Notes: generated by a model not told the origin, from the letters alone. A stretch of 64,000 bases of DNA from an uncultured Phycisphaeraceae bacterium (GCA_964425365.1 CAYRND010000001.1:1708-65707), one strand, 5' to 3'; counted from the first letter of the stretch, positions 1,012-54,764 are shown. Translations and numbers: made by a program.

Positions 1012-1821
1012 TTAATCCAGGTCATATAGACGGTTGTCCTGACTCAGGAAGCCGCAGTATTCGCCGATCAGCGGCTGTTGGTTCGAGTAGGTGTTGGTGT
1101 GGCGAACTGAGATGGAAGCGGTATGTCCATCGCAGAAGGCGACGTTGGTATGGTTATGATGCCGGTAGCCCTGTGTTCCTGCAGCGCGGGCGCTGAAGCT
1201 ATCGCGTGTTGTGGGTGGTGGAATCCCGGGTACGGCATGGTCGTTTCGGAAAGGTGATCGCATATATTTGTTAGCGCCGTTGATATATTCGCCATCGCCG
1301 AAAATCGCGGTATCGGCGGGGTCGGTGATTTCGCTGTTTCTTGCGGGCGGAACGGTTTTGTCGGGCTGAGCGTCATTGCCGTATCCGCCGATGTAGCTGA
1401 TGTTGTAGTTGTAACCTGTATAAGGGTCGGCTTTGGTATTGCTTTTGCTGTTGTAGGATGGGCATTGGTGTACCTGTTCAGTGGTGGCGTCTTCCATCCA
1501 GAGCAGGCCGGGCGTTACGGTGACCGTTTCCGGCGAAGTGCTCCAGTCGATGTAGGTGGTGAAGTCCCAATCGTGCTGGATTCGCGGTAAGTTGGTGATG
1601 AAATAGGCGAACGGATAGAAATCATTATTGGCCAGATTGTAATGATCTGCAGTCAGGCCGAGCTGTCTGAGGTTATTCAGGCAGACAGCGTTTCTTGCAG
1701 ATTCGCGTGCACTGCCGAGGGCGGGCAGCAGCAGTCCGATCAGCAGTGCGATGATCGCCATCACAACAAGCAGTTCGATGAGTGTGAAGGCATGCATTTG
1801 ATGATTGCCGTTATGTGCCAT
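1012..1821 (-). CDS. Prepilin-type N-terminal cleavage/methylation domain protein, DUF1559 / H-X9-DG family (type II secretion pseudopilin-like)
   Basis: The N-terminus [34 protein letters not shown] is a class III signal/pseudopilin helix. The C-terminal [14 protein letters not shown] fits the H-X9-DG signature. It overlaps the upstream gene by 11 nt. Confidence 0.8.
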
Positions 1822-3040
1822 ATTTGTACTTCATGGTTCTTCGCATGAGTGGAGCAATCATGAAGAGGCAGATGACCGCCGATGCCGGTTCAGGTATTGT
1901 TGTCGTTGCCATGCTTTCGAGCGAATCGGACCGGTCGTAATTGACCAGGACACTGATAAGGTCAACGGCATTGACCTGGCCGTTATTGTCGAGGTCGCCA
2001 TAATATCTACCAGGGTTATCCGATCGGCCGTAACAACTGAGCACCTTTGTGAGGTCGGGTGCATTGACGGATCGGTCCAGGTTCACGTCACCGTCAATAA
2101 GGGCCATGACGTCAGCGACGGCGTCGATTTCAGCCGAGCCGTAATCCGGTCCGTCGATGCGAACGTACTGAATCCAATCGAGTCCGGGGATATCGAGCCA
2201 GTCGAGATCGAACCCGGCCCCGCCGGCCGAGGTTGTGCCTGTGGGTAAGTGCCTGTAGAGCTGAGCATGTTCTGCAACGGTCAGCCCGGCGAGGTCGGCG
2301 AATGATAATGCGGGTTCGACGGGGATGGTGGGGAAGGTGGGCTGGCCCCACCAGAGGTTCCAGTCCCAACTGGTATCTGCGGGATCGTCCGGCCGATACG
2401 GCTCTGACGTGTCGTATTCCCGGCCGAGCGTGGGCGCGAAGTCATCGGCGCACGGGCCGGCGGGGAAGGTATACCACGGTCCGCTTTCGTACTGGCTGAC
2501 TGACACGGTAGCGGGTTCAGCGTTGTACTGACTTGAACCGGTAACGGTATTCGGATCGCCGTTGTCCCACGAGGATACGCTGTCGATGGTGACGCTTGCG
2601 TTACCGAAGATATTGAAGTCGATCCCGTACGGGTTATCAGGATGATTGATGACCGGGTGATCGAATTTAAGGACCAGTCTACCTTGGGGAATTTCAGGTG
2701 AGCCTTGCCCGGCGGGCAGGTAATGGCCGACGGTGACCAGTTCGAAACTGCGGAAGGCGGGATAGACACTGACGACGGGGACCGCCGTATCGATCGGCAT
2801 ACTCCAGCCGGTGCCGGTGGTATCGACGGTCGGCCTGCCGATAGCTGCGGAGGGCTCGGTGAACGGCTCGAACGTGACGTAATCGGGATCGTGTCCCGCG
2901 CCGGGCAGATAATCAATGTATTCGGTTGCGAAATCGGAGGGGTCGAACTGGTACTGGTAATCCGCCGGGCATGGGGGCAGCAGGTTCATGAAAGAACCTG
3001 CTGCCGCGATCGTGGTGATGAGATATTGTCTGAAGGTCAT
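1811..3040 (-). CDS. Secreted PEP-CTERM-anchored protein with dockerin-type Ca-binding repeats
   Basis: The C-terminus [21 protein letters not shown] has the PEP motif, a TM helix and a basic tail. There are two dockerin-like repeats: [19 protein letters not shown] and [17 protein letters not shown]. An N-terminal hydrophobic segment is present. The rest of the protein is unrecognised. Confidence 0.7.
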
Positions 3041-3045
3041 GGCGA

Positions 3046-3573
3046 TTATCCTTGTGAGCGTTTTCTGTTGACAAGTAGAGCGCCCGTGGTGATCAGGACG
3101 GCCAAGGTGTGCGGTTCCGGTACCGGCGTCAGAGCGCTGCCGTAGCGCCAGCCGTCGTAGTAACCGTCGGCGACGATCCGGTCACTGACGCCGATCAGTG
3201 ATGATTCCCATGGATCGAGTTCAGCGTCCTTTGTCCAGTAGTGCCACCAGTCTTCACCGCCGCCGTAGCCGGTGTCGCTGTGCGTATCGAAGCTGATCCC
3301 GTCGATGAATGTGCCGTAGCCGTAATCTTCACGGACAGTGGTAAGGCTGAGTTCCGCCTCGATGATATCGAAGAGTCCGAGTCCGGTGGTAGTGCCGGTG
3401 AAGTTAACGTCGAACAGGTACTGTGCATCATCGCTGAAGTGAAGAGCGAGGTATGCCTGGTTCTCGCCTGTGCCGACTTCGTAGGGGATGATATCTGCCT
3501 GGGCGGTCCGGGTCATTAAGCAGAGGCAGATCAGGACCAATGCAACCAGGGTGTAACGAATCGGTAATGGCAT
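3046..3573 (-). CDS. Small secreted PEP-CTERM protein; a DUF4430/transcobalamin-beta-like domain is suspected (candidate cobalamin-binding protein)
   Basis: The ORF track opens at 3702. However, a signal peptide MPLPIRYTLVALVLICLCLMTRTAQA starts at the ATG at 3573, preceded by AAAAGGAG (3581-3588). The C-terminus VPEPHTLAVLITTGALLVNRKRSQG is a PEP-CTERM anchor. The core GTFIDGISF...EDWWHYWTKD...GVSDRIVADGYYDGWRY resembles the DUF4430 pattern as I remember it. It lies directly downstream of the B12 riboswitch. Confidence 0.65.
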   Translation of the reverse strand: MPLPIRYTLVALVLICLCLMTRTAQADIIPYEVGTGENQAYLALHFSDDAQYLFDVNFTGTTTGLGLFDIIEAELSLTTVREDYGYGTFIDGISFDTHSDTGYGGGEDWWHYWTKDAELDPWESSLIGVSDRIVADGYYDGWRYGSALTPVPEPHTLAVLITTGALLVNRKRSQG

Positions 3574-3739
3574 TACGAAACTCCTTTTGCCCTGTATCGC
3601 GCAGGGCGTCAGCCCCGGGTGTGAATGGAAAAACAACCTATCCTCATGAGGGGAAGCAGGCGTCCTAGAGTCGTTTCGGGGCGTCAACGTGAAGGAGTTC
3701 ATGCCTGGGATTCCTTATCGCGAGGATCCAACCGACGGC

Positions 3740-3952
3740 AGGTTCCAGGCAGGTCTTCCGGCTGAGGGTTTACGTTTCGCTCGGGCCTTCCCGTGGTCAT
3801 GCCCATTGCGGGCGATGCGACAGTGGCCGGTACAGATGAGCGTTACGCCGGTCCCGGTTCGTCCGGGACCACCCATTACGGCGGCGCGTCCGCGGGGGAG
3901 TAGCGGCGATCCGACAGGACGCCGCGCACCCCACTTCCCTTTTCAGGCGAGC
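3740..3952 (-). promoter_or_regulatory. Cobalamin (B12) riboswitch aptamer
   Basis: The minus strand reads ..TGAAAAGGGAAGTGGGGTG.., ..CCGGCCACTGTCGCATCGCCCGCAATGGGCATGACCACGGGAAGGCC.., and the B12 box CAGCCGGAAGACCTGCCTGG (3764-3745). The order and spacing of GGGAA/GGTG, GCCACTG, GGGAAGGC and the B12 box match the Rfam cobalamin family as I know it. An unusually long insertion (about 110 nt) sits between GGTG and GCCACTG. A GCCCTG..CAGGGC hairpin lies just 5' of the AAGGAG of the downstream gene and may be the expression platform. Confidence 0.8.
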
Positions 3953-4212: not shown

Positions 4213-4284
4213 GCGGGTGTAGCTCAGTGGTAGAGCGTCACGTTGCCAACGTGAATGTCGAGGGTTCAAATCCCTTCACCCGCT
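4213..4284 (+). tRNA. tRNA-Gly (anticodon GCC)
   Basis: Hand-folded cloverleaf. Acceptor GCGGGTG/CACCCGC. D arm GCTC-AGTGGTA-GAGC. Anticodon arm TCACG-TTGCCAA-CGTGA, with GCC at 4245-4247. Variable loop ATGTC. T arm GAGGG-TTCAAAT-CCCTT (one G-U pair). Discriminator T. No CCA is encoded. Confidence 0.93.
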
Positions 4285-4925: not shown

Positions 4926-5168
4926 TCAGATGTGCAGGATCATATTAAAGAGGATGAAGTTGAGCAGCACGGCGGCGACTGAGATGAGTCCGGCCAGCAG
5001 CAGGCCGCCGAGATACTGCAGCGGCCGACTCATGCGGATGAGCGGCAGTCGCCGGGTATCGGGAACCTTACCCTGCTGGATCAGTTCCTGTTCGAACTGT
5101 TCTGCGGCGAGCAGTTGCTGCTCTAATTCGAGACGTCTTATCCGGCTGTCGGTATCGTAATCGGGCAT
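4926..5168 (-). CDS. Small tail-anchored membrane protein with an N-terminal coiled-coil-like segment, function unknown
   Basis: 80 aa. RIRRLELEQQLLAAEQFEQELIQQ is followed by the TM segment LQYLGGLLLAGLISVAAVLLNFILF. Its ATG shares one nucleotide with the TGA of the upstream Wzz-like gene (TGATG at 5170-5166). Confidence 0.5.
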   Translation of the reverse strand: MPDYDTDSRIRRLELEQQLLAAEQFEQELIQQGKVPDTRRLPLIRMSRPLQYLGGLLLAGLISVAAVLLNFILFNMILHI

Positions 5169-6598
5169 CAGGAAACACCTGTGAGTTCGCGGCTGGTTTC
5201 GCCTTGCGTTATCTGATTCGTACGGTGGCGTGATCGCAGCTCCTGTATCAGGGCCGTTCGCCTGCGCGTTTCATGATGCTCCAGTGTGAGCACATAAAGC
5301 ACACCCGCGAGCAGGCCGATCACACCGGCGATCAGGACGTTGAGTACGGTAAGCGGGAACACCGGCCGGCGAGGTACGGCCGCAGGTCTGATGACCAGCC
5401 CCGTCGTTTTCATCTGCAGTGAACTGGTGATCAGACGATCGCGAGCGGTTTCGAGTGATTGTCGCAGCATCTTTTTTTGCATGATCCGGTCTTCGAGGTT
5501 TTCGAGCTCGGCCAGGATGCCTGGTACTTTTCGGACAATCCCTTCGGTGACTTTAATGGCTTTTTCCAAGCCCTCGATACGAGCCTGTACACCTGACAGC
5601 TCGACTTTGTACATCATGAGGTTTTCTCTGAGATCGTCATAGAGGGACCCGGTGGTTTTGGATTTACTGCCGACGACCTGGCTCATATGCCTTGCGAGTG
5701 CTTCCTGAGCCCGGCTGTAGCGATGTTGAAGAGAAATCATGTAAGGATGGTCCGGGCTGAGCATGACCTGCTGGCCGGCGATTTCGACTTCGAGCAGATT
5801 GAGCCGTTCCTGCAGCGCTTCGGTCACGGGGTCCTGCAGAATCATTTCACCTTCGAGATACGCCTTGGATTCTTCATCGAGCTGGTCGGTCAGGTTCTTA
5901 ATCCGCTGCTGGTAGGCGCCCTTGTCCATCGCAAGCTGGTCGAGCTGTTTGTGGAAATCGGCTTTTCGCTCTTCGAGCTTTTCGATCATGACCTCGGGGG
6001 AAGCAATGTGATGGCCCTCGCAGAACTGCTTTTTCGATCCGGTAAGCGATTCGATATCGGCGTTGACCTCCTTCAACTGGTTGTTGAGATTCGCCATAGC
6101 GGCGTTCAGATCGTTCTGAATGACATTCTGGTGAAATTCGTTGAATATTTCGATGATCATATTGACGACCTTGGCTGCCAGTTCAGGGTTATGATCCCGT
6201 GCATAGATACGAATAAGCCCTTCTCGCGTCGCGGTGATATCAATGGCGGTTCGGAAGTGCTTAGCCTGTTCCTCGGGCAGGCGGGCGACGACCTGGCGGA
6301 CGGCGTTTGATTCCTGGAGGACGGCGGCGAAGGTACGTGCATGCGCCTGTACGCCGGAGGGCAGTCTGGCCTTGAGATCGGCGATATCGGTTGCATCGTG
6401 TACATCCTGTGGTACGTAGAAGACACCTCTCGCCTCGTATTGCGGCCTGATGGCGAGGCTGATGACACCACTGAGCACTGCGGCGGTAATGGTCATGAAC
6501 AGTATCATTCCACGCCGCCGGTAGAGGGCGGAGGTGTAATCTTCGAGCCGGTACTCGAAGGGAACGGTTTCGGTCGTATCAGTGGTTTTGTTGTTCAT
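5168..6598 (-). CDS. Polysaccharide chain-length determinant (Wzz/GumC-like PCP, no kinase domain)
   Basis: An N-terminal TM (MILFMTITAAVLSGVISLAI), a long coiled-coil periplasmic region and a C-terminal TM (VLNVLIAGVIGLLAGVLYVL). I prefer the start MNNKTT at 6598 over the track start at 6649. It could belong to the PEP-CTERM-locus chain-length subfamily; this was not tested. Confidence 0.75.
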   Translation of the reverse strand: MNNKTTDTTETVPFEYRLEDYTSALYRRRGMILFMTITAAVLSGVISLAIRPQYEARGVFYVPQDVHDATDIADLKARLPSGVQAHARTFAAVLQESNAVRQVVARLPEEQAKHFRTAIDITATREGLIRIYARDHNPELAAKVVNMIIEIFNEFHQNVIQNDLNAAMANLNNQLKEVNADIESLTGSKKQFCEGHHIASPEVMIEKLEERKADFHKQLDQLAMDKGAYQQRIKNLTDQLDEESKAYLEGEMILQDPVTEALQERLNLLEVEIAGQQVMLSPDHPYMISLQHRYSRAQEALARHMSQVVGSKSKTTGSLYDDLRENLMMYKVELSGVQARIEGLEKAIKVTEGIVRKVPGILAELENLEDRIMQKKMLRQSLETARDRLITSSLQMKTTGLVIRPAAVPRRPVFPLTVLNVLIAGVIGLLAGVLYVLTLEHHETRRRTALIQELRSRHRTNQITQGETSRELTGVS

Positions 6599-8036
6599 AG
6601 TCAATACCGTTTCTTTTCGCCAAGGCATGGAACACGCAGAGGGAGCCACCTGCCATACCCATATACAGCCATGAGACGAAGTTATCGTAAGCGGGTTCGA
6701 AGCACAGGTGAATTGCCAGCGCGGTCATGGCGAGGAACATGGCTTTGCAGGTTGCTTTGGTACGCGTATCAGGTGACCGCAGAGCACGGATCGCCAAAGC
6801 GGCGGTTAGGTAAATAACGAGTGATGCGAGCGTCGCGCCTGCGACGACGCCCATTTCGGCGGCGGTCTGGAGGTAGGCGTTATGGACGGGTGTGGGCAGT
6901 ACCCGGCCGACATTTCTCAGGCCTAGCCCGAACAGGGGATGGGTCCGGATGGCTTCCAGGCCCACGCGGATGAATTCGATCCGGTCGCCGTAGCCCCGGC
7001 CGCCGATGGCGAGCACCACATGTTGAATGAGCCAGTCCATCCCACCGGTAATGAAGAGAACGAGTCCGAGCAGTGCGATGGCGGCGGAATATTGCAAGGC
7101 GTATTGCGGCCTGTGCATATACAGGCCGACAAGCAGTACGGCCGCGGCGGTCAGGTAGGCGCCGATACTGAAGGTCATACCGATTGCCGCCAGCAGTGCG
7201 AGGCAGGACAGTATTCGTGTGTGCCGGGCCATGTCGGCAAAGAGTGTCAGGCCGAGTGCCAGCAGCATGAGATGTGCGAAGCTCTGCGGCGTAGTCATGA
7301 ACCCGGTGACGCGTAGCATCATGCCGAACGGCGTTTGCTTGTGATGAAATTCCGCGGCGTCATCGAAGGTGAACTCGATACCGGTGGCGAGGTAGAGGCA
7401 CTCACTGAAGATACCCACTGCGGCGGCGACCAAGGCAATATAGAGAAAGCACCTGACGGCAAAGCGTTGTCTGTCCGCCGTATTGATCAGGTTCGTTACG
7501 AGGAACATGACCATAATTTTGCTGAGCATCTGATGCTGGGTGATGATACTGATCATCAGGCCGTTGATGATGGACGCCAGCGAGCAGGCGGCCAGTACGG
7601 CGAGCATGATCATGATGGTGATGTCGGTGGCGATGCGTCGGTGTTCGATCAGCATGACCGCGATCCAGAACGACAGTACTATGAGGAACGCCAGATCGGT
7701 CGGATCGAGCCGACTTATATTGACTCCGGAGATGGCACCGGCGAAGATGAGCAGTGCGATGGCGATATTGAATCGATGTCGGAACAGTTCATATTGATAT
7801 CGTAGGCAGGTATAAGCGGCGAGTATGACAAAAATGACAGCGGCGGTAACGGCGGCGAGTCCGCTGTTGAAACCTGTTCCGAACAGTGTCAGGTGATATT
7901 GCACGGCGGTCATGGGGCCGAGCGTGATAGCGGCGGCGATGGCGGTTGTCACGATAAATGCGAAAACCGCATCGCGTGAGGTCAACGTGCCGAAGCCTCG
8001 TGTTTCGGGATGCGTATGATTGGCTGTCACTTCCAA
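6579..8036 (-). CDS. O-antigen ligase / Wzy-type polymerase family membrane protein
   Basis: 485 aa and polytopic (10 or more hydrophobic helices). It has a Wzy_C-like loop ..GLGLRNVGRVLPTPVHNAYLQTAAEMGVVAG... Confidence 0.75.
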   Translation of the reverse strand: MEVTANHTHPETRGFGTLTSRDAVFAFIVTTAIAAAITLGPMTAVQYHLTLFGTGFNSGLAAVTAAVIFVILAAYTCLRYQYELFRHRFNIAIALLIFAGAISGVNISRLDPTDLAFLIVLSFWIAVMLIEHRRIATDITIMIMLAVLAACSLASIINGLMISIITQHQMLSKIMVMFLVTNLINTADRQRFAVRCFLYIALVAAAVGIFSECLYLATGIEFTFDDAAEFHHKQTPFGMMLRVTGFMTTPQSFAHLMLLALGLTLFADMARHTRILSCLALLAAIGMTFSIGAYLTAAAVLLVGLYMHRPQYALQYSAAIALLGLVLFITGGMDWLIQHVVLAIGGRGYGDRIEFIRVGLEAIRTHPLFGLGLRNVGRVLPTPVHNAYLQTAAEMGVVAGATLASLVIYLTAALAIRALRSPDTRTKATCKAMFLAMTALAIHLCFEPAYDNFVSWLYMGMAGGSLCVFHALAKRNGIDYEQQNH

Positions 8037-8101
8037 CTACCTGATTGACGGTGTCAATAACACTATGCAAAAACCGTCGCCGCAGTTCGGCCGGGTTTCG
8101 A

Positions 8102-9289
8102 TCAATCGCAGGCAGGCTCCACACCGGTATGCCGGCTGCGTTTGCAGTTCAAAGCGAGTTCGTACAGGAACTTATCATATTTTACAATCATCCGGTCGAC
8201 ATTGAAACAGGCGAGTGCCCGTCTGCAGCCCTCGTTGCCCATTTTTCTGGCGGATTCGGGATCCCGGATCATACGGCCGAGGGCATCGGCAATTGCCTGA
8301 GGATCACGTGGCGGGACGAGCAGGCCGGTTTTTCCCTCCTGTACGACTTCGGGGATACCATCGACGCGAGTGGCGACGATGGGCAGGTTCCTCGACATGG
8401 CTTCCACCAGAACCATGCCGAAGCTTTCCCAGAGTGAAGCGAGGCAGAATATATCAAGTCCCCACATGAGTCGTGTCACATCGTTTCGCCAGCCGGTGAA
8501 GATGACGGAGGATGTGATGCCCAGGTTGTCAGCGTGTGTTTCCAGTTCAGGTTTAAGCGGGCCGTCGCCCATGATTACGAACCGTAGGTCATTCCGGTTC
8601 CGGCAGAGGATAGCGGCTGCTTCGAGCAGGTAGCTTAATCCTTTCTGCGTTTCACAACGTCCGGCGGTGCCGATGACAATGTCGGTCTCTTCGAGTCCGA
8701 GTTCACGTCGGATGGCGCGTCGGTCGGCCGGCTCGGCCTGATCGATTTCGACTGAGTTGTAAATGACATCGACCTTGTCGGGTTTCATGATGCCTGTGTT
8801 TCGGCCGTATTCCTTCATTGCGTTCGATACGGCCACGTACTTCGTGGTGGGCAGGTCCATTGCGCGTTCGATCCAGTGATAGATGATTCGCGTGAGCCAT
8901 ATCTGATTGGGATGGGAAGCGTAGACCTGAAGGATCATGACGCGAACAGGCACGCCGGTAAGCCATGCTGCAACGCGACCGAGCAGGCCGGCGATGGAGC
9001 ATTCCATACAGACCATCTGGAATCGCTCCTGCTTCATCAGTCGGCAGATTTCGAAGAACCCTCTGATGTTGGTCAGTGGGTTCAGTTTTCTTGACATGGT
9101 GAGTATATGAACGGGGATATCAAGCTGTTTGAACTGGTCGTCAAGTACGTAGCCGGGGCTGAACGCGGCGGTAAGCTCGAACCGGTCCCGCGGCAGATAT
9201 CGTGCCAGGTAATACGCATGGAGTCCAGCGCCGCCGGCGGTACTGGTAATCAGTAGTAACGTTTTAATTGTCTGCTTTCTCTCTTCCAC
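8102..9289 (-). CDS. Glycosyltransferase, GT4 (GT-B fold)
   Basis: N-terminal ITSTAGGAGLHAY, and the C-terminal EX7E region ESFGMVLVEAMSRNLPIVATRVDGIPEVVQEGKTGLLV. Confidence 0.85.
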   Translation of the reverse strand: MEERKQTIKTLLLITSTAGGAGLHAYYLARYLPRDRFELTAAFSPGYVLDDQFKQLDIPVHILTMSRKLNPLTNIRGFFEICRLMKQERFQMVCMECSIAGLLGRVAAWLTGVPVRVMILQVYASHPNQIWLTRIIYHWIERAMDLPTTKYVAVSNAMKEYGRNTGIMKPDKVDVIYNSVEIDQAEPADRRAIRRELGLEETDIVIGTAGRCETQKGLSYLLEAAAILCRNRNDLRFVIMGDGPLKPELETHADNLGITSSVIFTGWRNDVTRLMWGLDIFCLASLWESFGMVLVEAMSRNLPIVATRVDGIPEVVQEGKTGLLVPPRDPQAIADALGRMIRDPESARKMGNEGCRRALACFNVDRMIVKYDKFLYELALNCKRSRHTGVEPACD

Positions 9290-9295
9290 GATGAT

Positions 9296-10513
9296 TTACA
9301 CCTGTTTCGGGTTTGGTTGTCTGTGGTTCTGAATTAGATTCCGGTAAAGATAATCGAGTCGTTCGCCGAGCAACTGTCCGCTGCAATGTCTGCGAACGAA
9401 ACTCGGGCCATCTGCGAGAGCGTTTACGTGCAGATTCGTATTGTCGAGTGCCTTCGCCAGCGTATTGGCGAGAGGCACTATTTCGGGCGTATCAATGAGC
9501 AGGCCGGTCTGATCGTGTTGTATCAGTTCAGGGATGCCGCCGGTCCGCGTCGCAACGACGGCGACGCCGGTAGCGAGTGCCTCGATAACCACAACGCCGC
9601 AAGGCTCGCCCCAGACGGAAGGTACGGCAACGACTCGCGAACGTTGGTAGAACCCAGGCAGCTCCGAATGCGTTATTGTACCACAGAACCGTACATTTCG
9701 ACCGAGATTCAGATGTTTAACGCAATTCTTGCACTGGTTGATATACGAGCCGTGTTCAGTGCCGCCCGTTTCCGGTCCGATGATATGGAGTTTGATTTCA
9801 GGCCGGTCCTGGGCGAGTATACCAATCGCCTTGATCAGTTCCATGACGCCCTTTTCGGCTGCAATACGTCCGACGAAGAGGATATCGATCTCCTTTCGGC
9901 AATTCCTGTCGGGCTTGAAAAGCTGTAGATCAACGACATTAGGGATAATACTTATCCGTGATGAATCAAATTTGTGGTGGTTTTGGATAGCGTCATGGAT
10001 AAAGCGGCTGATGGCGACGAGGTGATCGGTATGGGTAGCGATGAACCGGTCGACGACTCTGCCGCAGGCTGCCGCTGCCCACCGCAGTCCGAATGCGGGG
10101 TAAGCCATTGCTTCGGCCGCTTTCCAGTTATGCACGTGGTAGACGTTGATCCAGGGGTCACGTCGGAACAACCCTGTCGCCGTCATCAGGAGACAGGGGT
10201 AGCGGTAATGATGATGCACGATATCGGGTTTCAGGTCACTGCATTGTTTTCGGGCGAGACGGCTGAATGTATAGACGTTTTTCAGCATGGCGGTCATGCT
10301 TGTACAGCGGTGGCTTTCACCTGTCAGTTGATGATAGGTAGCGTTTTCGTGATTGCGAGTTCGCGTGGTATTGTCAGGTGCGACGGTCATGACATGTATG
10401 TCGTGTCCGCGTTCGGCCAATGCGCGTATCTGTTCACGGACCTGCGATTCGATACCGCCGGTGGTGTACTCCGGTAGTGAATGCAGGTTGGTTGATACGA
10501 TACAAATTCGCAT
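9296..10513 (-). CDS. Glycosyltransferase, GT4 (GT-B fold)
   Basis: MRICIVSTN..TTGGIESQV, and GEPCGVVVIEALATGVAVVATRTGGIPELIQHDQTGLLI. Confidence 0.85.
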   Translation of the reverse strand: MRICIVSTNLHSLPEYTTGGIESQVREQIRALAERGHDIHVMTVAPDNTTRTRNHENATYHQLTGESHRCTSMTAMLKNVYTFSRLARKQCSDLKPDIVHHHYRYPCLLMTATGLFRRDPWINVYHVHNWKAAEAMAYPAFGLRWAAAACGRVVDRFIATHTDHLVAISRFIHDAIQNHHKFDSSRISIIPNVVDLQLFKPDRNCRKEIDILFVGRIAAEKGVMELIKAIGILAQDRPEIKLHIIGPETGGTEHGSYINQCKNCVKHLNLGRNVRFCGTITHSELPGFYQRSRVVAVPSVWGEPCGVVVIEALATGVAVVATRTGGIPELIQHDQTGLLIDTPEIVPLANTLAKALDNTNLHVNALADGPSFVRRHCSGQLLGERLDYLYRNLIQNHRQPNPKQV

Positions 10514-10525
10514 GGCGTTTTCGTT

Positions 10526-11596
10526 TCAGGGGGTATCGGTCATGGCGATGTTCGCCCGTTCCGGTTGAAAGGTATTGTGATGAGGTATCCGTGTCAGGCC
10601 GGTGAGATACTTGATCTGTTTGCCCAGCCCATGCAGCCGTGCGAGCGTCAGGCCCTGTCTGACCGGGTGGTCGCGAGTGAGCCATCGGCAGAATCGGCCG
10701 GGGATCGAACAGTGAGTCAGTGCCGGCGGAGTTTCATTCAGTTCATCGAGGTATGAGCGTGCGGCGTGGTTATAAGGAGAGAGTTCGAAAGTCAGTTGAT
10801 TGTAATAAGCTCGCGGATTACCGCACCAGTTTGTCTGCGGCCGGACATCCCATATTTTCGGTTCCGCTCCGTGCAGGAGAGGCGGGACATGTTCGCGGCC
10901 GCACCGCCTGCGTTCGGTTGCCGTGAAGCCCGCCGGTCCGACACATTGAGCGATTTCACTGCCGCGTCGGATGGTATGAAGCGGGATATGGCTGAACGCT
11001 TTGGATCCGACCAGTGCGGTGAGAACATCCTGATCGCCCTGGAGGTGGATGGGTCTGACGGCCATCGGGTGGATCGTCTGCGCTTTGCGGTAACAGGGCA
11101 GTTCCAGCATTTCCCGCCAGGCCATCAGCAACTCGCGATGCGAGGGTGTCACGCGTATGACACCGCTGCTGAGTGTCGCCGTCAGTCGGCGCCCGACGTC
11201 GAGGCCCCACAGTTCCGTGCGGATGCTGCCCCCGGGATGGCGGTCCCAGTCCCATGCTTCCGAGACGACCAGATCCTGATCGTTTCGATTCGTGAAGAAT
11301 CTGCGGATATCACTTGTGAGGATGATATCGGAGTCGAGCCAGATCAGTTCATGATGTCCTTCGTCGAGCAGTCTGAGCAGCAGGCTGGGTTTGACATCCC
11401 AGCCGTGTGTGGTGAAGTCGGGATCATATCGCATGTCGGCATGTGGGAATCTGTTGAGCCATGACGTGAACCCGGGCGCCTTGGCCGGATAGCTGATCAG
11501 AACCTGCACGCCCGGGCAATGCCGGTTGATACTCAGTACGAGCAGTTTCATACCGAGCAATGCTTTCGGGCGGTTGTCGTAGGTGCAGATCAGCAT
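10526..11596 (-). CDS. Putative nucleotide-diphospho-sugar transferase (GT-A-like, GT8-like)
   Basis: A DxD-like motif WLDSDIILTSD, and an N-terminal Rossmann-like strand MLICTYDN. This is only a weak family assignment made by eye. Confidence 0.5.
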   Translation of the reverse strand: MLICTYDNRPKALLGMKLLVLSINRHCPGVQVLISYPAKAPGFTSWLNRFPHADMRYDPDFTTHGWDVKPSLLLRLLDEGHHELIWLDSDIILTSDIRRFFTNRNDQDLVVSEAWDWDRHPGGSIRTELWGLDVGRRLTATLSSGVIRVTPSHRELLMAWREMLELPCYRKAQTIHPMAVRPIHLQGDQDVLTALVGSKAFSHIPLHTIRRGSEIAQCVGPAGFTATERRRCGREHVPPLLHGAEPKIWDVRPQTNWCGNPRAYYNQLTFELSPYNHAARSYLDELNETPPALTHCSIPGRFCRWLTRDHPVRQGLTLARLHGLGKQIKYLTGLTRIPHHNTFQPERANIAMTDTP

Positions 11597-12909
11597 GTGG
11601 AATGCATCCTGTTTACAGGTTCTGATTCCTTCTGTCCCAGTGACGAGCGGATGATGTCCAGCTCACTTCGCATCAGGTGTTCCCAGTTCAATTCACGGCT
11701 TTCCCGTACCGCGTTATGGATCATTCGCTGTCGTTCATGATCGTTATCAAGTATTCGGCAGATTGCCTGTTCGATCGCTGGTGTCTGGTCGGGAATGACC
11801 AGTCCGCAGTCGAACCGGCGGACCATATCACCGGCTTCGGTATCATCCGTTGCGATGACGGGCATGGCGGCGGCCATGTACTCGATGACCTTCAGTGGGC
11901 AGGCGTATTGTCTGAACGGAACAGGCCGGGAGTTCGCCAACCCGATGTGTCCATCGGCCAGGATATCGGGAATCCGGTGATTGCTTATCGATCCGAGGAA
12001 TCGGCAGTATTGTTGCAGGTTCATTGAATCGACAAGAGTCTTAAGGCAGGCTTCGTAAGCGGGCAGTGCTTTTCCGATAATCAGAAGTCTCACCTGCGGG
12101 TGCCGGTTGATGACGGCGGGCAGTGCCCGTATGGTCTGTTCGAGTCCGCTCCAGTGGACGATGTTGCCGACGTAGACGAGGTTGGCGCCCGGTGTCTTAT
12201 TTGTTCGTGCGGTTTCGAACCGTTGCCAGTTCACACCTGTGGGGATGTAATGGATTGTGCGAGGTGTTTGTGACTGCCGCAGCGCGATGAGCCTTCTGCT
12301 GTTTGCAACGACCTGTTTTGCCCGTCGGATCATCTGCGATTCGAGCCATGCGGTAAAGCGGAACCGTAGTCCTTCGGGCATCAGTGCGGCTTCATAGTCG
12401 CGGTCTTCGTAAACGAGCAAATCGACCCGGTTCATCTTCCGCAGCAGCCATGCAACGGCACTACCCCAGGGGCCGAAGCCGACGGCGGCATGATACCGTC
12501 CTCGCAGGCAGAAAAATGAGGCAATCAGAAAGCAGGGAATCACAAACACAAGCCTCAGTCCGGCCAGTCCGGCCAGCCATCGGATGAGGCGGTATTTCAG
12601 ATTCAATCGTGCCGGGTTCGCGTGTACACCGGCCCGGGCATTGGTGCCCAGGCCGCCGAAGTAATTGAAGAAGGGATCAACCCGGATCATCGTCAGGTCA
12701 ACCTGTTTCCGGCGTCGGCACGACATGGTGATGCAGTCCATGGCCATCTGCCATTTCCGGGTCGACCGGTTAGTGACTTTGTACATGACAGTCACCTCAC
12801 AGCCCAGGGCGTGATATTCTCTGGCCATGTTATGTTCACGGTTGTTCCACGCATCGGTGTAATCGAGAGGCGTAATAAGAAGTATCCGCAGGGGTGATCG
12901 TGTGTTCAT
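11590..12909 (-). CDS. Glycosyltransferase, GT4-like, with an internal hydrophobic insertion
   Basis: LRILLITPLDY..; the C-terminal PLKVIEYMAAAMPVIATDDTEAGDMV; and a hydrophobic segment LAGLAGLRLVFVIPCFLIASFFCL. The start at 12909 gives an ATGA overlap with the upstream stop, whereas the track start is 12939. Confidence 0.75.
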   Translation of the reverse strand: MNTRSPLRILLITPLDYTDAWNNREHNMAREYHALGCEVTVMYKVTNRSTRKWQMAMDCITMSCRRRKQVDLTMIRVDPFFNYFGGLGTNARAGVHANPARLNLKYRLIRWLAGLAGLRLVFVIPCFLIASFFCLRGRYHAAVGFGPWGSAVAWLLRKMNRVDLLVYEDRDYEAALMPEGLRFRFTAWLESQMIRRAKQVVANSRRLIALRQSQTPRTIHYIPTGVNWQRFETARTNKTPGANLVYVGNIVHWSGLEQTIRALPAVINRHPQVRLLIIGKALPAYEACLKTLVDSMNLQQYCRFLGSISNHRIPDILADGHIGLANSRPVPFRQYACPLKVIEYMAAAMPVIATDDTEAGDMVRRFDCGLVIPDQTPAIEQAICRILDNDHERQRMIHNAVRESRELNWEHLMRSELDIIRSSLGQKESEPVNRMHSTC

Positions 12910-14165
12910 GGCGTTTTCACCTCCGCGTGTTTCACACATCGCTGATACAGATCAGTCATGAGATGGAGGTGGTGATCCGGGCTGTATAGCTTTTCGACCG
13001 AATGTTTTGCGTTTTCACCCAGTTGTGACCGGACCGTATCGTTGCGGATGAGTGTGCGTAATGCCTCTGCAAGAGCGTCGACATCGCCGTGTTCCACCAT
13101 CAGGCCGTTGACGTTATCGATCAGCCACTGGCTGATACCCCCGGCATTGAACGCGACGACGGGTCTGGCGAACGACATGGCCTCGATGCCCGCCAGTCCG
13201 AATGACTCGGGTATCAGTGACGGCATGACGAGCAACGAGCATGACGCATAGGCTGTTTGAAGTTCGTCGGCGTTCAGTTCGCCTGTAAATTGGACACGGT
13301 TCTGAAGTCGGTACAGATGGACTTGCTGTTTCGCCTCGTCCAGTAGCGGGCCGTCGCCGATGATTTCCGCGGTCCATGACTCGCCGCCGATCCGGTAGAA
13401 GGCGTCGATCAGTTTCAATATGCCTTTTTCGGGAATCAATCTTCCTGTGAAGAGAATGCGGCATGGCTGGTTGCTATTCTTTGCGGTCGCTTTGATGCCG
13501 GCGAACCGTGAATAGTTCGGAATAACCACGACTTGTCTTTCATCCATACCGTTGACGATACACTGCGATTTCAAATAGGCGCTGGGTACAATCACTGCTT
13601 TTGCGCATCGCATTGCATGGATATGAAGTGGTTGGGCAGCCACGCGGAGCAGGTCGGTCGCCGGCGGGGATAGTCTGCCGATCCGGTAACAACCGCTGGT
13701 GAGGCATCCCAGACCCGCCGGCCTGTCGCAAATCACGCCGTCGGGTAGAAGCTTGGTCTGGTTGAAGCACAGAGATGTGACGTCGTGTAGTGTGCAGACG
13801 ACGGGTACCCACCGGCTGAGCCGGCTGATCAGAGTGGGATGCGTTGCGTAGTAGATGGAATGGATATGGACGAGGTCGGGATTTTCGGTGTGAACAATTC
13901 GCCGGAGTTGCGAATACGTTCGCCGGCCGTTGCGATAGCTCAGCTTGCCGATGCGATAATGGCCTTCGTTGTTGTTGTGGAGCTGGTCGACCGAGATGGT
14001 ATCGGTGATTCGAACGGTGACGACCTCGATCCCCTGTCGCCGGAGAGCATGTACCAGTCCGTCCAGGTAGACACCGATACCACCGCCAGCCATCGCCTGG
14101 GCCTGTATCCGGCCGTTGGTGTGGGAGAAATCGATCGGTTTGGAATAGAGTTGAAGTACTTTCAT
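12906..14165 (-). CDS. Glycosyltransferase, GT4 (GT-B fold)
   Basis: MKVLQLYSK..GGGIGVYL, and ESFGLAGIEAMSFARPVVAFNAGGISQWLIDNVNGLMV. The start at 14165 gives an ATGA overlap with the upstream stop, whereas the track start is 14216. Confidence 0.85.
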   Translation of the reverse strand: MKVLQLYSKPIDFSHTNGRIQAQAMAGGGIGVYLDGLVHALRRQGIEVVTVRITDTISVDQLHNNNEGHYRIGKLSYRNGRRTYSQLRRIVHTENPDLVHIHSIYYATHPTLISRLSRWVPVVCTLHDVTSLCFNQTKLLPDGVICDRPAGLGCLTSGCYRIGRLSPPATDLLRVAAQPLHIHAMRCAKAVIVPSAYLKSQCIVNGMDERQVVVIPNYSRFAGIKATAKNSNQPCRILFTGRLIPEKGILKLIDAFYRIGGESWTAEIIGDGPLLDEAKQQVHLYRLQNRVQFTGELNADELQTAYASCSLLVMPSLIPESFGLAGIEAMSFARPVVAFNAGGISQWLIDNVNGLMVEHGDVDALAEALRTLIRNDTVRSQLGENAKHSVEKLYSPDHHLHLMTDLYQRCVKHAEVKTP

Positions 14166-15031
14166 GGCATTGCGTGTACTCGTGTCATCAGCGATTCGAA
14201 CGCCGCCGGGGTACATTCGTAAAACGCCTCGAAGTATCCTCTGCCGCGTCCGAAATAGATCGATCGGTATGCAGACAGTCCTTCCATTGCACGGATGTAA
14301 TCAATTCGGCGGGTCTGGCTTTCGAAGCATGCGAGTGCCTCTCGCTTACGGTCGATCAGGTTGCCGATATCAATCAGTCTGTTGGCGTGCAGCGGCGACC
14401 AGACTTCGTATCCGCGAAGCAGGCAATTGTTTGTCCGGCTCAGGCCGGCAATGTGCAGGGCGGCGGCGAGAATGCGATTCGTCGTCCAGTGATCGTCATG
14501 GCTGTCCATGACGGACGGATGGTAGATCAGTTGCGGCTTGTGCTGTGAGAGCCACCGGGCCAGTGTCTGGATGTATTGTTCCGTGGGTGCCAGATTTCCG
14601 TCGGGTCCGTCGAGGAAAACCAGTTCGTTGATATCCATCACACGAGCTGCGTTGTGAGCTTCCTGTTTGCGGGTACGTATCAGTGCCTTTTCAGCCTGGT
14701 GGATGGCCGATTCGGCCAGGTTGGTTGTGTACAGGTCGGGATCGCCTTTCGATCCATCGGTCAGGTAGATGACGGTGACGGCCGCGCCGGCCTGCCGGTG
14801 ATGCATGACGGCGCCACCGCAGCCGATGGTTTCGTCATCCATATGCGGCGCGAGGACAAGTACGGTATTCGCATGGAATTGAGAGATCATAACGGGCGGC
14901 TTATCGCGTTCATCGAGCAGCAGAGCCAGCCGGATATGGTTCTTAACGCCCCGCGGCACGAGCGTGCGGTAAGTTAATCGAACCAGGATTCGCAGCAGTC
15001 GTTTCATCGTCTTTTCGTGGTCATCTATCAA
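14162..15031 (-). CDS. PIG-L / LmbE family N-acetyl-sugar deacetylase
   Basis: VLAPHMDDETIGCGGAV (the AHPDDE-type metal site), and a second motif SVMDSHDDHWTT (HxDH). Confidence 0.8.
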   Translation of the reverse strand: MIDDHEKTMKRLLRILVRLTYRTLVPRGVKNHIRLALLLDERDKPPVMISQFHANTVLVLAPHMDDETIGCGGAVMHHRQAGAAVTVIYLTDGSKGDPDLYTTNLAESAIHQAEKALIRTRKQEAHNAARVMDINELVFLDGPDGNLAPTEQYIQTLARWLSQHKPQLIYHPSVMDSHDDHWTTNRILAAALHIAGLSRTNNCLLRGYEVWSPLHANRLIDIGNLIDRKREALACFESQTRRIDYIRAMEGLSAYRSIYFGRGRGYFEAFYECTPAAFESLMTRVHAMP

Positions 15032-51908: not shown

Positions 51909-54764
51909 ATGAATACGGTTTATCACAGTCAATATTGGGCAAATGCGCTTACTTTGAGAGGGTCGGGTGGAGATATCGATTCACTCACAAAATCGATTGC
52001 CAATGCCCGTGTCGACCTGAATCCGCATCAGATCGATGCCGCGCTATTTGCATTACGTTCGCCGTTTACGAACGGTGCTGTTCTGGCTGACGAGGTGGGC
52101 TTGGGCAAGACGGTGGAAGCGGGGATTGTGCTGTCGCAGCGATGGGCGGAACGTCGTCGTCGGATATTGATTATCGTGCCTGCGATGCTTCGCAATCAGT
52201 GGCAGCAGGAGTTGATTGAGAAATTCTTTATTGCCTCGGAAGTGCTGGATTCGAAGGGTTACAAACGCTTCAGCAAGGATGGCCTGGCCAACCCATTCGA
52301 TCAGAAAGACAAGGCGATCATCTGTTCATATAATTTCGCTGTATCGAGAACCGCTGAATTGTCACAAATTCCATGGGATCTGGTGGTTATTGACGAAGCC
52401 CACCGTCTGCGAAACGTCTATCGCTCTCGAACACGCATACAGAACAACCCTGACGCCAGAAAAACAATGGCCCACCGCATAACCGATTCGTTGGGCAATG
52501 CTTCGAAGCTTCTGTTAACCGCCACACCACTCCAGAATTCTTTACTTGAATTGTTCAGTCTGGTAAGCGTCATCGACCCGCATGTGTTCGGTGATGTTGC
52601 ATCGTTTCGCGAGCAGTTCATCAATAATCCTGACGAAGTCACTCGGAATCTGTCACTTAAGCAACGGATTACCCCGGTCTGCACACGTACCTTGCGAAAG
52701 CAGGTCATCGAGTATATTCCATTCACCAATCGCATCCCGATCACGCAGGAATTTCTGCCTACTGATGAGGAGCAGGCATTATATGATGAGATTACCTCTT
52801 ACCTGCAGCGGGAGGTGCTTTATGCTCTTCCGGCGAGCCAGCGTCGGCTTATCACAATGGTGCTCCGTAAGCTGCTGGCATCGTCCACATTCGCGATTGC
52901 CCGAACGCTTCGGCGTCTTGCTGACCGTCTGGAGAATCTGGGTGAAGCCCTGGACCTTTTCGATGACGAAGATATCGAGGGCATTGATGAGATCGCAGAT
53001 GAGTATGAAGAAGATACCGATTCCGATCCTGATAGCGGTCGGATTGTTCCTGAGAAGTTAAAAAGTGAACTGTCCGACCTTCGCCGGTATGCGGAACTCG
53101 CCGCCGACATCAGTCATAACGCAAAAGGCGACAAGCTTCTCCCGGCACTTCAGATAGCTTTCGCCAGAGCTGAGGAGATTGGCTCGGCACGCAAGGCCGT
53201 TATATTCACCGAGTCACGCGAAACGCAGATGTACCTTTACAAATTGTTGAATGCCAATGGATACGAGGGTCAGGCGGTTACGATTAACGGTACGAACAAA
53301 CAGCCGCATCATGCCGCCATTTACGAGCAGTGGCTTGTTAAGCATAAGGGAACGGACCGGGTCACGGGCTCTCGCGCGATCGACATGAAAGCGGCCATTG
53401 TCGAGTATTTCCGCGACGAGGCAACCATTCTTATCGCCACCGAGGCTGCCGCCGAGGGCGTCAACCTCCAGTTCTGCTCACTGGTGGTGAATTTTGATCT
53501 TCCATGGAACCCACAGCGTATTGAGCAGCGTATCGGCCGGTGCCACCGGTACGGCCAGAAGCATGATGTGGTTGTCGTCAACTTTCTGAATCTTCGTAAT
53601 GAGGCGGACAAACGTGTCTATGAACTTCTGAGTGAGAAATTCAAGCTTTTCGATGGCGTATTCGGCGCTTCCGACGAAGTTCTGGGTGCTCTCGAATCGG
53701 GGGTGGACATTGAGCGGCGTATCGCCGAGGTTTACCAGACCTGCCGCACCAGTGAAGAAATCAAAACGGCATTTGATGCATTACAGGCGGAGCTTGACGC
53801 GAAAATTCAAGCACGTCTTGCCGCAACTCGCCGGGCTTTGCTGGAGCATTTCGACGAGGATGTCCGCTATCGTCTGAAAATCAACCGGGAAAAAACGATT
53901 GAATTTCTATCGCAGCGGGAACGCTGGTTACTCGAATTGACACGGGTTGAACTTAACGGTGATGCCCGTTTTGATGATCAAAGGCCCAGATTCCATTATT
54001 CCGGCCCTGACGCCGGACAAGGCTGGTACAATCTGGCCTGGAAAGAGGCGGAAGCTACCGACGAGCATTTCTACCGTCCCGATCATCCGCTGGCCCTACA
54101 TCTGATCAATCAGGCCAAGGCCCGGCAGTTACCCGCAGCCGAGGTTGTATTCGACTACACGAATCACCCGTCGAAGATCAGCATTTTCGAGCCATTGGTC
54201 GGCCAGTCCGGCTGGCTGGAAGTTTCCAAACTTACGGTATCGGCCGTGGAGGTGGACGAGTTTCTTGTTTTCGCTTGTAGAACTGACCATAACCAGCGAT
54301 TGGACGAGGACATCTGCCGGAAGCTCTTGTCGCTTTCCGCCGCAGTCGAATCGGAGGCTACTGACGCACCCAGTCTGGCCGTGATCCGCGATGCCGAAGT
54401 GAACGCCCGTCTCAAGGAGATCGACACCCGCAACGCCCGCTTCTTCGATGAGGAAGTCCTGAAGCTCGACTGTTGGAGCGAGGACCTGAAAATATCTCTG
54501 GAGCATGAGATCAAGGAGCTTGACAGGCAGATCCGCGAGCTTCGCCGCACGGCTGCTCTTGCTCAATCCCTCCAGGACAAGCTGACCCACCAGAAACAAC
54601 TGCGCGATCTCGAACGCCGCCGCAACGTGAAGCGGCGCGAACTCTTCGACGCCCAGGACGCCATTGACACGCAGCGGGAAGAACTGATCGGTAAGATTGA
54701 GAAACAGTTGAAGCATACCAGCACCGTCCAAGCCCTGTTTACGATACGATGGAGGCTTTTATGA
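51909..54764 (+). CDS. SNF2-family helicase/translocase with a long coiled-coil C-terminal region
   Basis: Motif I LADEVGLGKT; Ia IIVPAMLRNQW; II VVIDEAHRLRN; III LLLTATPLQNSLLELFSL; V ILIATEAAAEGVNLQ; VI WNPQRIEQRIGRCHRYGQ. About 350 aa C-terminal to the helicase core end in a coiled coil, ..ELFDAQDAIDTQREELIGKIEKQLKH... Confidence 0.9.
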   Translation: MNTVYHSQYWANALTLRGSGGDIDSLTKSIANARVDLNPHQIDAALFALRSPFTNGAVLADEVGLGKTVEAGIVLSQRWAERRRRILIIVPAMLRNQWQQELIEKFFIASEVLDSKGYKRFSKDGLANPFDQKDKAIICSYNFAVSRTAELSQIPWDLVVIDEAHRLRNVYRSRTRIQNNPDARKTMAHRITDSLGNASKLLLTATPLQNSLLELFSLVSVIDPHVFGDVASFREQFINNPDEVTRNLSLKQRITPVCTRTLRKQVIEYIPFTNRIPITQEFLPTDEEQALYDEITSYLQREVLYALPASQRRLITMVLRKLLASSTFAIARTLRRLADRLENLGEALDLFDDEDIEGIDEIADEYEEDTDSDPDSGRIVPEKLKSELSDLRRYAELAADISHNAKGDKLLPALQIAFARAEEIGSARKAVIFTESRETQMYLYKLLNANGYEGQAVTINGTNKQPHHAAIYEQWLVKHKGTDRVTGSRAIDMKAAIVEYFRDEATILIATEAAAEGVNLQFCSLVVNFDLPWNPQRIEQRIGRCHRYGQKHDVVVVNFLNLRNEADKRVYELLSEKFKLFDGVFGASDEVLGALESGVDIERRIAEVYQTCRTSEEIKTAFDALQAELDAKIQARLAATRRALLEHFDEDVRYRLKINREKTIEFLSQRERWLLELTRVELNGDARFDDQRPRFHYSGPDAGQGWYNLAWKEAEATDEHFYRPDHPLALHLINQAKARQLPAAEVVFDYTNHPSKISIFEPLVGQSGWLEVSKLTVSAVEVDEFLVFACRTDHNQRLDEDICRKLLSLSAAVESEATDAPSLAVIRDAEVNARLKEIDTRNARFFDEEVLKLDCWSEDLKISLEHEIKELDRQIRELRRTAALAQSLQDKLTHQKQLRDLERRRNVKRRELFDAQDAIDTQREELIGKIEKQLKHTSTVQALFTIRWRLL

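Follow-up and report, generated by a model that had tools for sequence, protein, structure and literature searches.

What does a cobalamin riboswitch control when the genes behind it are not recognizable as genes of vitamin B12 metabolism? This question was raised by a window of 64,000 nt (the whole stretch of DNA analysed) from an uncultured Phycisphaeraceae bacterium, in which a cobalamin riboswitch precedes an operon of three genes, all on the minus strand and referred to here as genes 1, 2 and 3. By hidden Markov model (HMM) searches with Pfam and NCBIfam, no match to BtuB, BtuFCD, cob/cbi or isozyme families was detected in any of the three. At the sequence level this agrees with the initial annotation of this DNA, which had noted the lack of any known B12 gene; at the level of fold the statement did not hold, as two of the three predicted proteins resemble known B12-binding modules. 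We consider it likely that this operon is repressed by vitamin B12 and serves to capture corrinoids on the cell surface in a PVC-type (Planctomycetes–Verrucomicrobia–Chlamydiae; Planctomycetota-like) bacterium. The cassette probably represents a cell-surface B12-scavenging system that has not been described before.

The nature of the leader was examined by Rfam cmscan of the window. The RF00174 match scored 64.7 bits (gathering score, 31.5; E = 1.1e-13) and covers the full-length model, positions 1-189. The initial annotation, which had proposed such a search of the leader region, placed the riboswitch at 3952-3740 based on a series of ordered motifs. These motifs are present, and that span corresponds to the conserved core, with P1 and the 5' part reaching 4005. 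The B12 box CAGCCGGAAGACCTGCC had also been recognized, with a wrong end (3764-3745), the true span being three bases shorter; it occurs as one copy in the window and was matched in none of 100 shuffled sequences. The distance from the end of the aptamer to the gene 1 ATG, on the same strand, is 157 nt. Apart from the riboswitch, Rfam detected just one RNA in the 64 kb of the window, a divergent tRNA-Gly(GCC) (4213-4284). A weak candidate promoter, TTGCCA-17-TACGCT at 4039-4011, was read by eye, and this site was not returned by the promoter scan. Behind the riboswitch, the three genes are packed as originally proposed, with the same gap and the same overlap (Table 1). A longer open reading frame (ORF) at 3702-3046 was considered as the true gene 1 and rejected, as it lacks a Shine-Dalgarno (SD) sequence and overlaps the leader structure, and the homologues align from the start at 3573.

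Linkage of the riboswitch to this cassette was then found to be recurrent. By scanning one genome per species with the gene 1 alignment, 72 loci were obtained, and six more were fetched through gene 2 homologues, making 78. Nearly all of the 72 come from metagenome-assembled genomes (MAGs) of Planctomycetota (Phycisphaerae, Sedimentisphaerales and Pirellulales-labelled bins), together with one of Kiritimatiellae and a few otherwise labelled. In 62 of these 72 gene 1 loci, the cassette is immediately preceded on its own strand by an RF00174 aptamer that reaches the gathering score. Among the remaining ten, three lie at a contig edge without upstream DNA, one gives a dubious partial match, one (L067) gives nothing, and five (L060, L064, L068, L070 and L071), which form a divergent gene 1 subgroup, carry a match to the adenosylcobalamin (AdoCbl) riboswitch RF01482 at the position occupied elsewhere by RF00174. 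These RF01482 matches are sub-threshold: they score 38-45 bits, where the gathering score is 50, with E-values between 4e-5 and 2e-3. Counting both classes, an aptamer of the cobalamin clan is found in 67 of 68 evaluable gene 1 loci. The loci fetched through gene 2 also carry RF00174 (6/6, 95-112 bits); gene 1 is missing from three of them. The initial annotation had suggested a survey for such recurrence, and its outcome is strongly positive.

In about 767 kb of scanned sequence only one further RF00174 was found, at 7961-8145 (minus strand) in L025, where it drives three genes convergent with the cassette (5095-7850, minus strand), namely btuF (Peripla_BP_2, E = 5e-29), btuD and btuC, the last of them split. 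At another locus (L069, 5589-7228), a gene for the corrinoid adenosyltransferase BtuR/CobO (PF02572, E = 1e-58) lies behind the riboswitch and gene 1; an ORF read as PdxA-like also follows, and genes 2 and 3 are absent. Two tandem RF00174 aptamers (5262-5458 and 5624-5820; 87 and 107 bits) stand before the cassette of L014. At the RF01482 loci with downstream sequence (L060, L064, L068 and L071), a membrane protein of about 220-240 aa follows, one copy of which gives a weak PAP2 match. The bins of L003, L007, L021, L055, L067 and L071 carry the labels Anaerolineales, Myxococcota, delta proteobacterium, Armatimonadetes and Bifidobacterium, which points to mis-binning or else to horizontal spread beyond PVC bacteria.

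The organization of the cassette was determined by re-annotation of the loci with tblastn and HMMs. The order gene 1-gene 2-gene 3 is kept in most loci; the variants are gene 1-gene 3-gene 2 (L013 and L078) and gene 2-gene 3-gene 1 (the Kiritimatiellae locus L017). In about 22 loci genes 1 and 2 form a single ORF, five of these with two gene 1 domains before the gene 2 core, and this is a genuine domain fusion linking both predicted binders. In about 55 loci the binder genes are followed by a DUF1559 gene, and L073, L074 and L077 pair genes 2 and 3 without gene 1; with these counted, no partner is more constant than the pseudopilin-like gene. Eight loci lack gene 2 and combine gene 1 with a second type of DUF1559 protein (150-205 bits), which is about 27-33% identical to gene 3 and is followed in seven of them (L004, L008, L026, L036, L042, L049 and L061) by a lipoprotein-like ORF of about 165 aa. 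When all flanking ORFs were clustered to look for other conserved partners (BtuB, a secretin or a pilus ATPase, for example), none emerged, and only local synteny was detected (ComF-like, LexA-like and sigma-factor genes). In L016, two extra PEP-CTERM proteins are encoded between genes 1 and 2 (6517-8128), and these seem distantly paralogous to gene 2 (…GTPFDLD…IQYVRL…) and gene 1. Two apparent gene 2-gene 3 fusions, P0042 and P0073, were judged to be read-through or gene-call artefacts, because an internal PEP-CTERM tail is followed by an internal prepilin leader.

The gene 1 product had been annotated as a small PEP-CTERM protein, and this was borne out by TIGR02595 (16.8 bits; cutoff, 16). 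PF07589 was matched by 29 of 34 relatives of gene 1, and the window copy itself has no Pfam domain at all. An AlphaFold2 model based on 34 homologues reached a pLDDT (predicted local distance difference test) of 86.3 and a pTM (predicted template modelling score) of 0.74. When this model was compared with the PDB by Foldseek, ranks 1-15 were occupied exclusively by transcobalamin, intrinsic factor, haptocorrin and the DUF4430 protein 3U7Z, including the isolated transcobalamin beta-domain both with and without B12. The probabilities of these 15 matches were 0.99-1.00 and the template modelling (TM) scores, normalised to the isolated beta-domain, 0.62-0.69; beyond rank 15, ubiquitin-like folds appeared with probabilities of 0.63 or less. 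The gene 1 product is thus predicted, as judged from the model, to have the fold of the transcobalamin beta-domain and DUF4430. Its family is large: at 50% clustering, a search of 1.84 billion representatives returned 1,570 at E ≤ 1e-3 and 318 at E ≤ 1e-10, far beyond the size indicated by word-indexed search. Among the members listed as P0155-P0304, some carry up to five tandem copies (P0162, 775 aa), and others are fused with FG-GAP or immunoglobulin (Ig) domains.

For gene 2, the annotated length of 409 aa was correct. The dockerin and the PEP-CTERM tail that had been assigned to it are recognizable by eye or at the family level, and both escape the HMM cutoffs in the window copy. The dockerin (PF00404) scored 20.9 bits, under the Pfam gathering score of 22.9; it was called in 46 of 115 homologues (E, 0.05), and the family profile matches dockerins in the PDB (E = 4.5e-5). 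The tail was called in 30 of the 115 homologues. The protein has a signal peptide and no lipobox, and more than 496 homologues were found. Pfam searches of the 115 members for a link to BtuH or BtuG gave only dockerin, PEP-CTERM and EF-hand matches.

The AlphaFold2 model of gene 2, based on the 115 homologues, gave a pLDDT of 89.4 and a pTM of 0.84. Among 350,542 PDB chains searched by Foldseek, 8BLW_B was the sole match below E = 1e-3 (E = 2.3e-6, probability 1.00); lower ranks were occupied by lectin and carbohydrate-binding module (CBM) jelly rolls and one dockerin. Chain B of 8BLW is BtuG1, a surface lipoprotein of Bacteroides thetaiotaomicron in which a B12-binding beta-propeller is fused to a B12-binding BtuH domain (PMC10404256, PMC8941943), giving two B12 sites in one protein (PMC10404256). 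As the gene 2 core is rich in beta-strands and its length of about 280 aa is close to that of the BtuH domain (about 250-270 aa), we tentatively ascribe the match to the latter; the core probably resembles the BtuH-type domain of BtuG1. Variants of gene 2 of about 636 aa (P0082, P0086, P0102, P0103, P0111 and P0120; also at L073 5001-6947 and L074 3264-5174) carry an extra N-terminal domain of about 330 aa with repeated GN(L)Y/HxGxG motifs, and have the dockerin without PEP-CTERM. When the extra domain was compared with the BtuG propeller, only a faint hint of beta-propeller repeats was obtained, and it is possible that these variants have a BtuG-like G+H architecture. The next gene to the variant is a DUF1559 gene in L073 (faint PF07596) and a 250-aa ORF without Pfam match in L074.

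Gene 3 had been annotated as a DUF1559/H-X9-DG pseudopilin-like protein. The N_methyl (PF07963, 29.7 bits; cutoff, 21.2) and DUF1559 (PF07596, 26.3 bits; cutoff, 23.3) models support this assignment; the H-X9-DG model (TIGR04294) stayed below its cutoff (13.6 bits; cutoff, 19), with the motif itself visible and conserved in the orthologues. Against the PDB, only the N-terminal helix matches solved pilins. The DUF1559 family is massively expanded in PVC bacteria. Within it, the orthologues of gene 3 form a separate group, scoring 266-375 bits on the HMM as compared with 54-138 bits for unrelated DUF1559 paralogues in the flanks, and they share the motifs QCP-F, TGYNYN-SY-G, FGDG…GANK-MR-P and AG-Q--RH…DG.

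How might the riboswitch act on this operon? In related leaders, an intrinsic terminator was detected between the aptamer and the start codon in 54 of 63 cases, in the form of a U-run behind a GC-rich hairpin (-18 to -28 kcal/mol), indicating that these leaders use a classical transcription-termination platform. The initial annotation had taken a terminator between leader and genes to speak against riboswitch control; this argument falls, because such a terminator is part of the switch. For the window's own leader, the terminator scan found no canonical intrinsic terminator. In its minimum-free-energy (MFE) folds, the anti-SD sequence GAACUCCUU (3700-3692) pairs with the complementary AAGGAGUUU (3586-3578), which contains the SD sequence AAGGAG 7 nt before the gene 1 ATG, in a 9-bp helix of eight Watson-Crick pairs and one G-U pair. 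The window operon is probably switched by sequestration of the ribosome-binding site (RBS), that is, by translational repression upon ligand binding.

Table 1. Positions and parts of the riboswitch-led operon in the window
Feature	Position	Strand	Description
Cobalamin riboswitch aptamer (RF00174)	4005-3731	minus	Rfam covariance model; B12 box 3764-3748
Leader/expression platform	3574-3730	minus	MFE folds; without canonical intrinsic terminator
Gene 1	3573-3046	minus	175 aa; ATG preceded by AAGGAG
Gene 1, parts of product			Signal peptide (…TAQA/D); predicted transcobalamin-beta-domain-like module, about residues 30-146; PEP-CTERM tail (VPEP…RKR)
Gene 2	3040-1811	minus	409 aa; 5-nt gap after gene 1
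Gene 2, parts of product			Signal peptide; conserved beta-rich core of about 280 aa, about residues 35-312; dockerin-like Ca-binding repeat pair, 317-362; PEP-CTERM-like tail
Gene 3	1821-1012	minus	269 aa; overlaps gene 2 by 11 nt
Gene 3, parts of product			N-terminal prepilin methylation helix (FTLIELLVV); DUF1559 globular domain; C-terminal H-X9-DG motif

Putting these elements together, we propose the following mode of action. At high intracellular levels, cobalamin would bind the leader aptamer and turn the operon off, probably through the RBS in the window and through the intrinsic terminator in most relatives; we infer this polarity (ligand to OFF). When B12 is scarce, the operon would be expressed and the three proteins made. 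The products of genes 1 and 2 would be exported by their Sec signal peptides. Given their PEP-CTERM tails, sorting by an exosortase would presumably follow, with retention on the envelope or in the exopolysaccharide (EPS) layer. There both may bind corrinoids, an activity suggested by the modelled folds. The gene 3 protein could act as an envelope-spanning partner that receives or presents the ligand and helps to move it inward, toward an inner-membrane importer of the BtuFCD type, in place of the BtuB/TonB step; this role, and with it uptake beyond mere capture, is what we infer for gene 3. The initial annotation had envisaged an undescribed envelope apparatus for corrinoid capture. This proposal is supported by the present results, and is strengthened by the transcobalamin-like predicted fold of gene 1 and by the match of the gene 2 model to BtuG1.

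Several results weigh against this reading, and they bear on different parts of it. The Foldseek E-values of gene 1 are modest (2e-3 to 3e-2), Pfam DUF4430 matched neither gene 1 nor its 34 close, 40 distant and 3 divergent relatives, and an HMM search of PDB sequences with the gene 1 profile gave no match; because the Pfam and PDB-sequence searches were all negative, the tie of gene 1 to transcobalamin and DUF4430 is one of fold only. As to gene 2, its TM-scores against 8BLW_B are low (0.25 and 0.17, the aligned domain, G or H, not being reported), BtuH2 (7BIZ) does not appear in its Foldseek top 50, and the profile of 115 homologues matched only dockerins among PDB sequences. Both folds might then be coincidental: genes 1 and 2 would encode beta-grasp-like and jelly-roll surface proteins that bind polysaccharide, metal or another tetrapyrrole, and B12 would regulate them indirectly, for instance in a surface remodelling tied to B12-dependent metabolism. 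The missing sequence-level link to DUF4430 or BtuH fits such an explanation, as do the lectins and CBMs among the lower-ranked matches of gene 2, its low TM-scores, and the deposition of 3U7Z only as a putative metal-binding protein. We nevertheless regard it as improbable. Two independent proteins, encoded in an operon led by a B12 riboswitch, both have B12 binders as the top or the sole significant match in the PDB; two riboswitch classes of the cobalamin clan precede gene 1 homologues; and btuFDC and BtuR are among the neighbours. Cobalamin riboswitches, moreover, overwhelmingly control B12 transport, B12 synthesis or B12-independent isozymes. Still less credit can be given to control of gene 1 alone, with genes 2 and 3 as unrelated passengers under an internal promoter. 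A sigma-70-like site, TTGTCA-18-GATAAT (10/12), does lie at the junction of genes 1 and 2 (3074-3045, minus strand), but the promoter scan returned six sites where 2.6 are expected by chance, so that this one is probably fortuitous. The narrow gap and the overlap, with no terminator found, also argue against a passenger status, as do the fusion of genes 1 and 2 at so many loci and the separate RF00174 of loci that have only genes 2 and 3.

The other weak points concern the switch and the step after binding. The fold stability of the whole window leader is at the level of shuffled sequence (z = -0.08), and for this reason translational repression is offered as a hypothesis. There is no sign of corrinoid handling in the sequence of gene 3, and gene 1 stands alone in L021, L055 and L069, which indicates that a pseudopilin need not be present. 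No BtuB or other TonB-dependent receptor was seen among the recurrent ORF clusters (neighbourhoods of about 10 kb) and inspected neighbours of the 78 loci, with no receptor-specific model run and whole genomes not examined. These points leave room for a system of capture or sequestration only, in which genes 1 and 2 would serve, as do BtuJ/BtuH in Bacteroides, as a reservoir for corrinoids outside the cell or as a competitive sink, gene 3 would be a generic helper of secretion or assembly or a docking scaffold for the dockerin, and a conventional transporter encoded elsewhere would carry out uptake. The predicted folds indeed indicate binders and not channels, the dockerin-like module of gene 2 implies docking to a partner, gene 1-alone loci exist, and BtuB was looked for in short neighbourhoods and not in genomes. 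Bacteroides binders of this sort serve as reservoirs upstream of BtuB (PMC13616437; bioRxiv 10.1101/2025.07.01.662609). We hold this explanation to be unlikely, since the binders keep the company of a dedicated, orthologous DUF1559 gene across many rearrangements (genes 1-2-3, the gene 1-gene 2 fusion with gene 3, genes 2-3, 1-3-2 and 2-3-1, and gene 1 with the second DUF1559 type), which is unusual for a generic secretion component. To our knowledge, canonical pseudopilins of type II secretion systems (T2SS) are not substrate-specific, which also counts against a generic helper. By analogy with the competence pseudopili that take up DNA, gene 3 could even be a ligand-specific uptake pseudopilin: corrinoid from the two PEP-CTERM binders would be passed to a short pilus-like fibre built with gene 3, which would bring it into the periplasm by way of a secretin-type channel in the outer membrane, replacing the TonB-dependent BtuB step. 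This extension of the preferred reading, that of B12-repressed capture at the surface, is tentative and itself rather doubtful. If it were true, the DUF1559 family of PVC bacteria would represent a repertoire of substrate-specific import adaptors, with B12 as the first identified cargo.

Neighbouring genes in the window were also inspected. Beyond gene 3, a thioredoxin-reductase-like gene begins after 113 nt and has its own promoter-like site. Directly upstream of the riboswitch and the tRNA, an EPS locus at 5168-14216 (minus strand) resembles PEP-CTERM/XrtA systems, all matches being below the curated cutoffs; it encodes a chain-length-determinant-like protein, a polytopic membrane protein of 485 aa and several GT4 glycosyltransferases. 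An NCBIfam scan of ten proteins encoded at 5.2-16.9 kb, the only part of the window in which an exosortase was sought, did not reveal one. Further away, four successive giant ORFs (2222, 1864, 2227 and 2146 aa) at 21836-47220 (minus strand) make up a hybrid assembly line of non-ribosomal peptide synthetase and polyketide synthase (NRPS-PKS) type, with condensation-adenylation-peptidyl carrier protein (C-A-PCP) modules that carry TubC_N docking domains, plus a single ketosynthase-acyltransferase-ketoreductase-dehydratase-acyl carrier protein (KS-AT-KR-DH-ACP) module. An SNF2-family helicase gene (951 aa) is located at 51909-54764 (plus strand).

In the searchable full-text literature, no paper was found that ties a cobalamin riboswitch to DUF1559, and for PEP-CTERM, DUF4430 and Planctomycetes nothing relevant turned up either; DUF1559 appears there in four papers, all of them genome or transcriptome surveys. 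Planctomycetes, transcobalamin and pilins are all absent from a review of cobamide scavenging dated September 2026. The mechanism of surface corrinoid scavenging has been worked out mainly in gut Bacteroides, and B12 acquisition by Planctomycetota and their relatives is not addressed in the literature found. Against this background, the cassette offers two candidate B12-binder families outside the coverage of Pfam. The riboswitch in addition ties one DUF1559 orthologous group to a defined small molecule, so that a family of unknown function gets its first candidate ligand, one that is open to test.

Among known proteins, gene 1 is closest to the beta-domains of transcobalamin, intrinsic factor and haptocorrin and to DUF4430 (PF14478; PDB 5NP4, 2BB6, 2PMV, 4KKI and 3U7Z), with which it agrees in predicted fold and in size (about 110 aa), nothing else in the PDB giving a confident match. 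Pfam groups DUF4430 with the C-terminus of transcobalamins (PMC4350170). A motif-level likeness is also seen in an aromatic-rich segment, W-x-Y-W…G…DG…W-x-Y, as compared by eye for DUF4430. Gene 1 differs from these proteins in its signal peptide and PEP-CTERM tail, and it stands alone, whereas in the eukaryotic carriers an alpha-domain completes the B12 pocket. If confirmed, the transcobalamin beta-domain fold would extend to environmental PVC bacteria, with a bearing on the ancestry of eukaryotic B12 carriers. Gene 3 belongs with the DUF1559/H-X9-DG prepilin-like family of PVC bacteria (PF07596, TIGR04294) and is set apart from its other members as an orthologous group within a B12 riboswitch operon, beside predicted B12 binders. 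B12 binders of the DUF4465 (BtuJ) family include tested members from Mucisphaera calidilacus (Phycisphaerae) and the Verrucomicrobium Coraliomargarita akajimensis (PMC13398666). These represent a different fold and family, for which no Pfam match was obtained in the three cassette genes.

The nearest system is the relay of Bacteroides thetaiotaomicron, in which BtuG, BtuH and BtuJ work with BtuB (PMC6143338, PMC8941943, PMC10404256, PMC13616437). In both cases, cobalamin riboswitch loci encode several accessory corrinoid binders of the surface ahead of import (the binding being predicted here), the binder domains may be fused (G+H in BtuG1; gene 1 with gene 2 here), and a BtuFCD-type importer is encoded for the inner membrane (here in L025). 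The differences start with the phylum, the cassette being found in Planctomycetota, Kiritimatiellae and related MAGs, and with sequence, as BtuG and BtuH show no detectable similarity to the cassette proteins. The Bacteroides relay includes BtuB, a TonB-dependent transporter, and none is seen in the cassette. A binder with a transcobalamin-beta-like predicted fold is not described in the cited Bacteroides papers, and the DUF1559 pseudopilin, which is integral to the cassette, also sets it apart from the relay. The system as a whole would therefore belong to a known kind, riboswitch-controlled capture of corrinoids at the cell surface, in which involvement of a DUF1559 pseudopilin would be new biology if that protein takes part in uptake. 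The presumed logic of anchoring is likewise distinct, with a lipid anchor on the Bacteroides lipoproteins and a PEP-CTERM/exosortase signal together with a dockerin on the proteins of the cassette.

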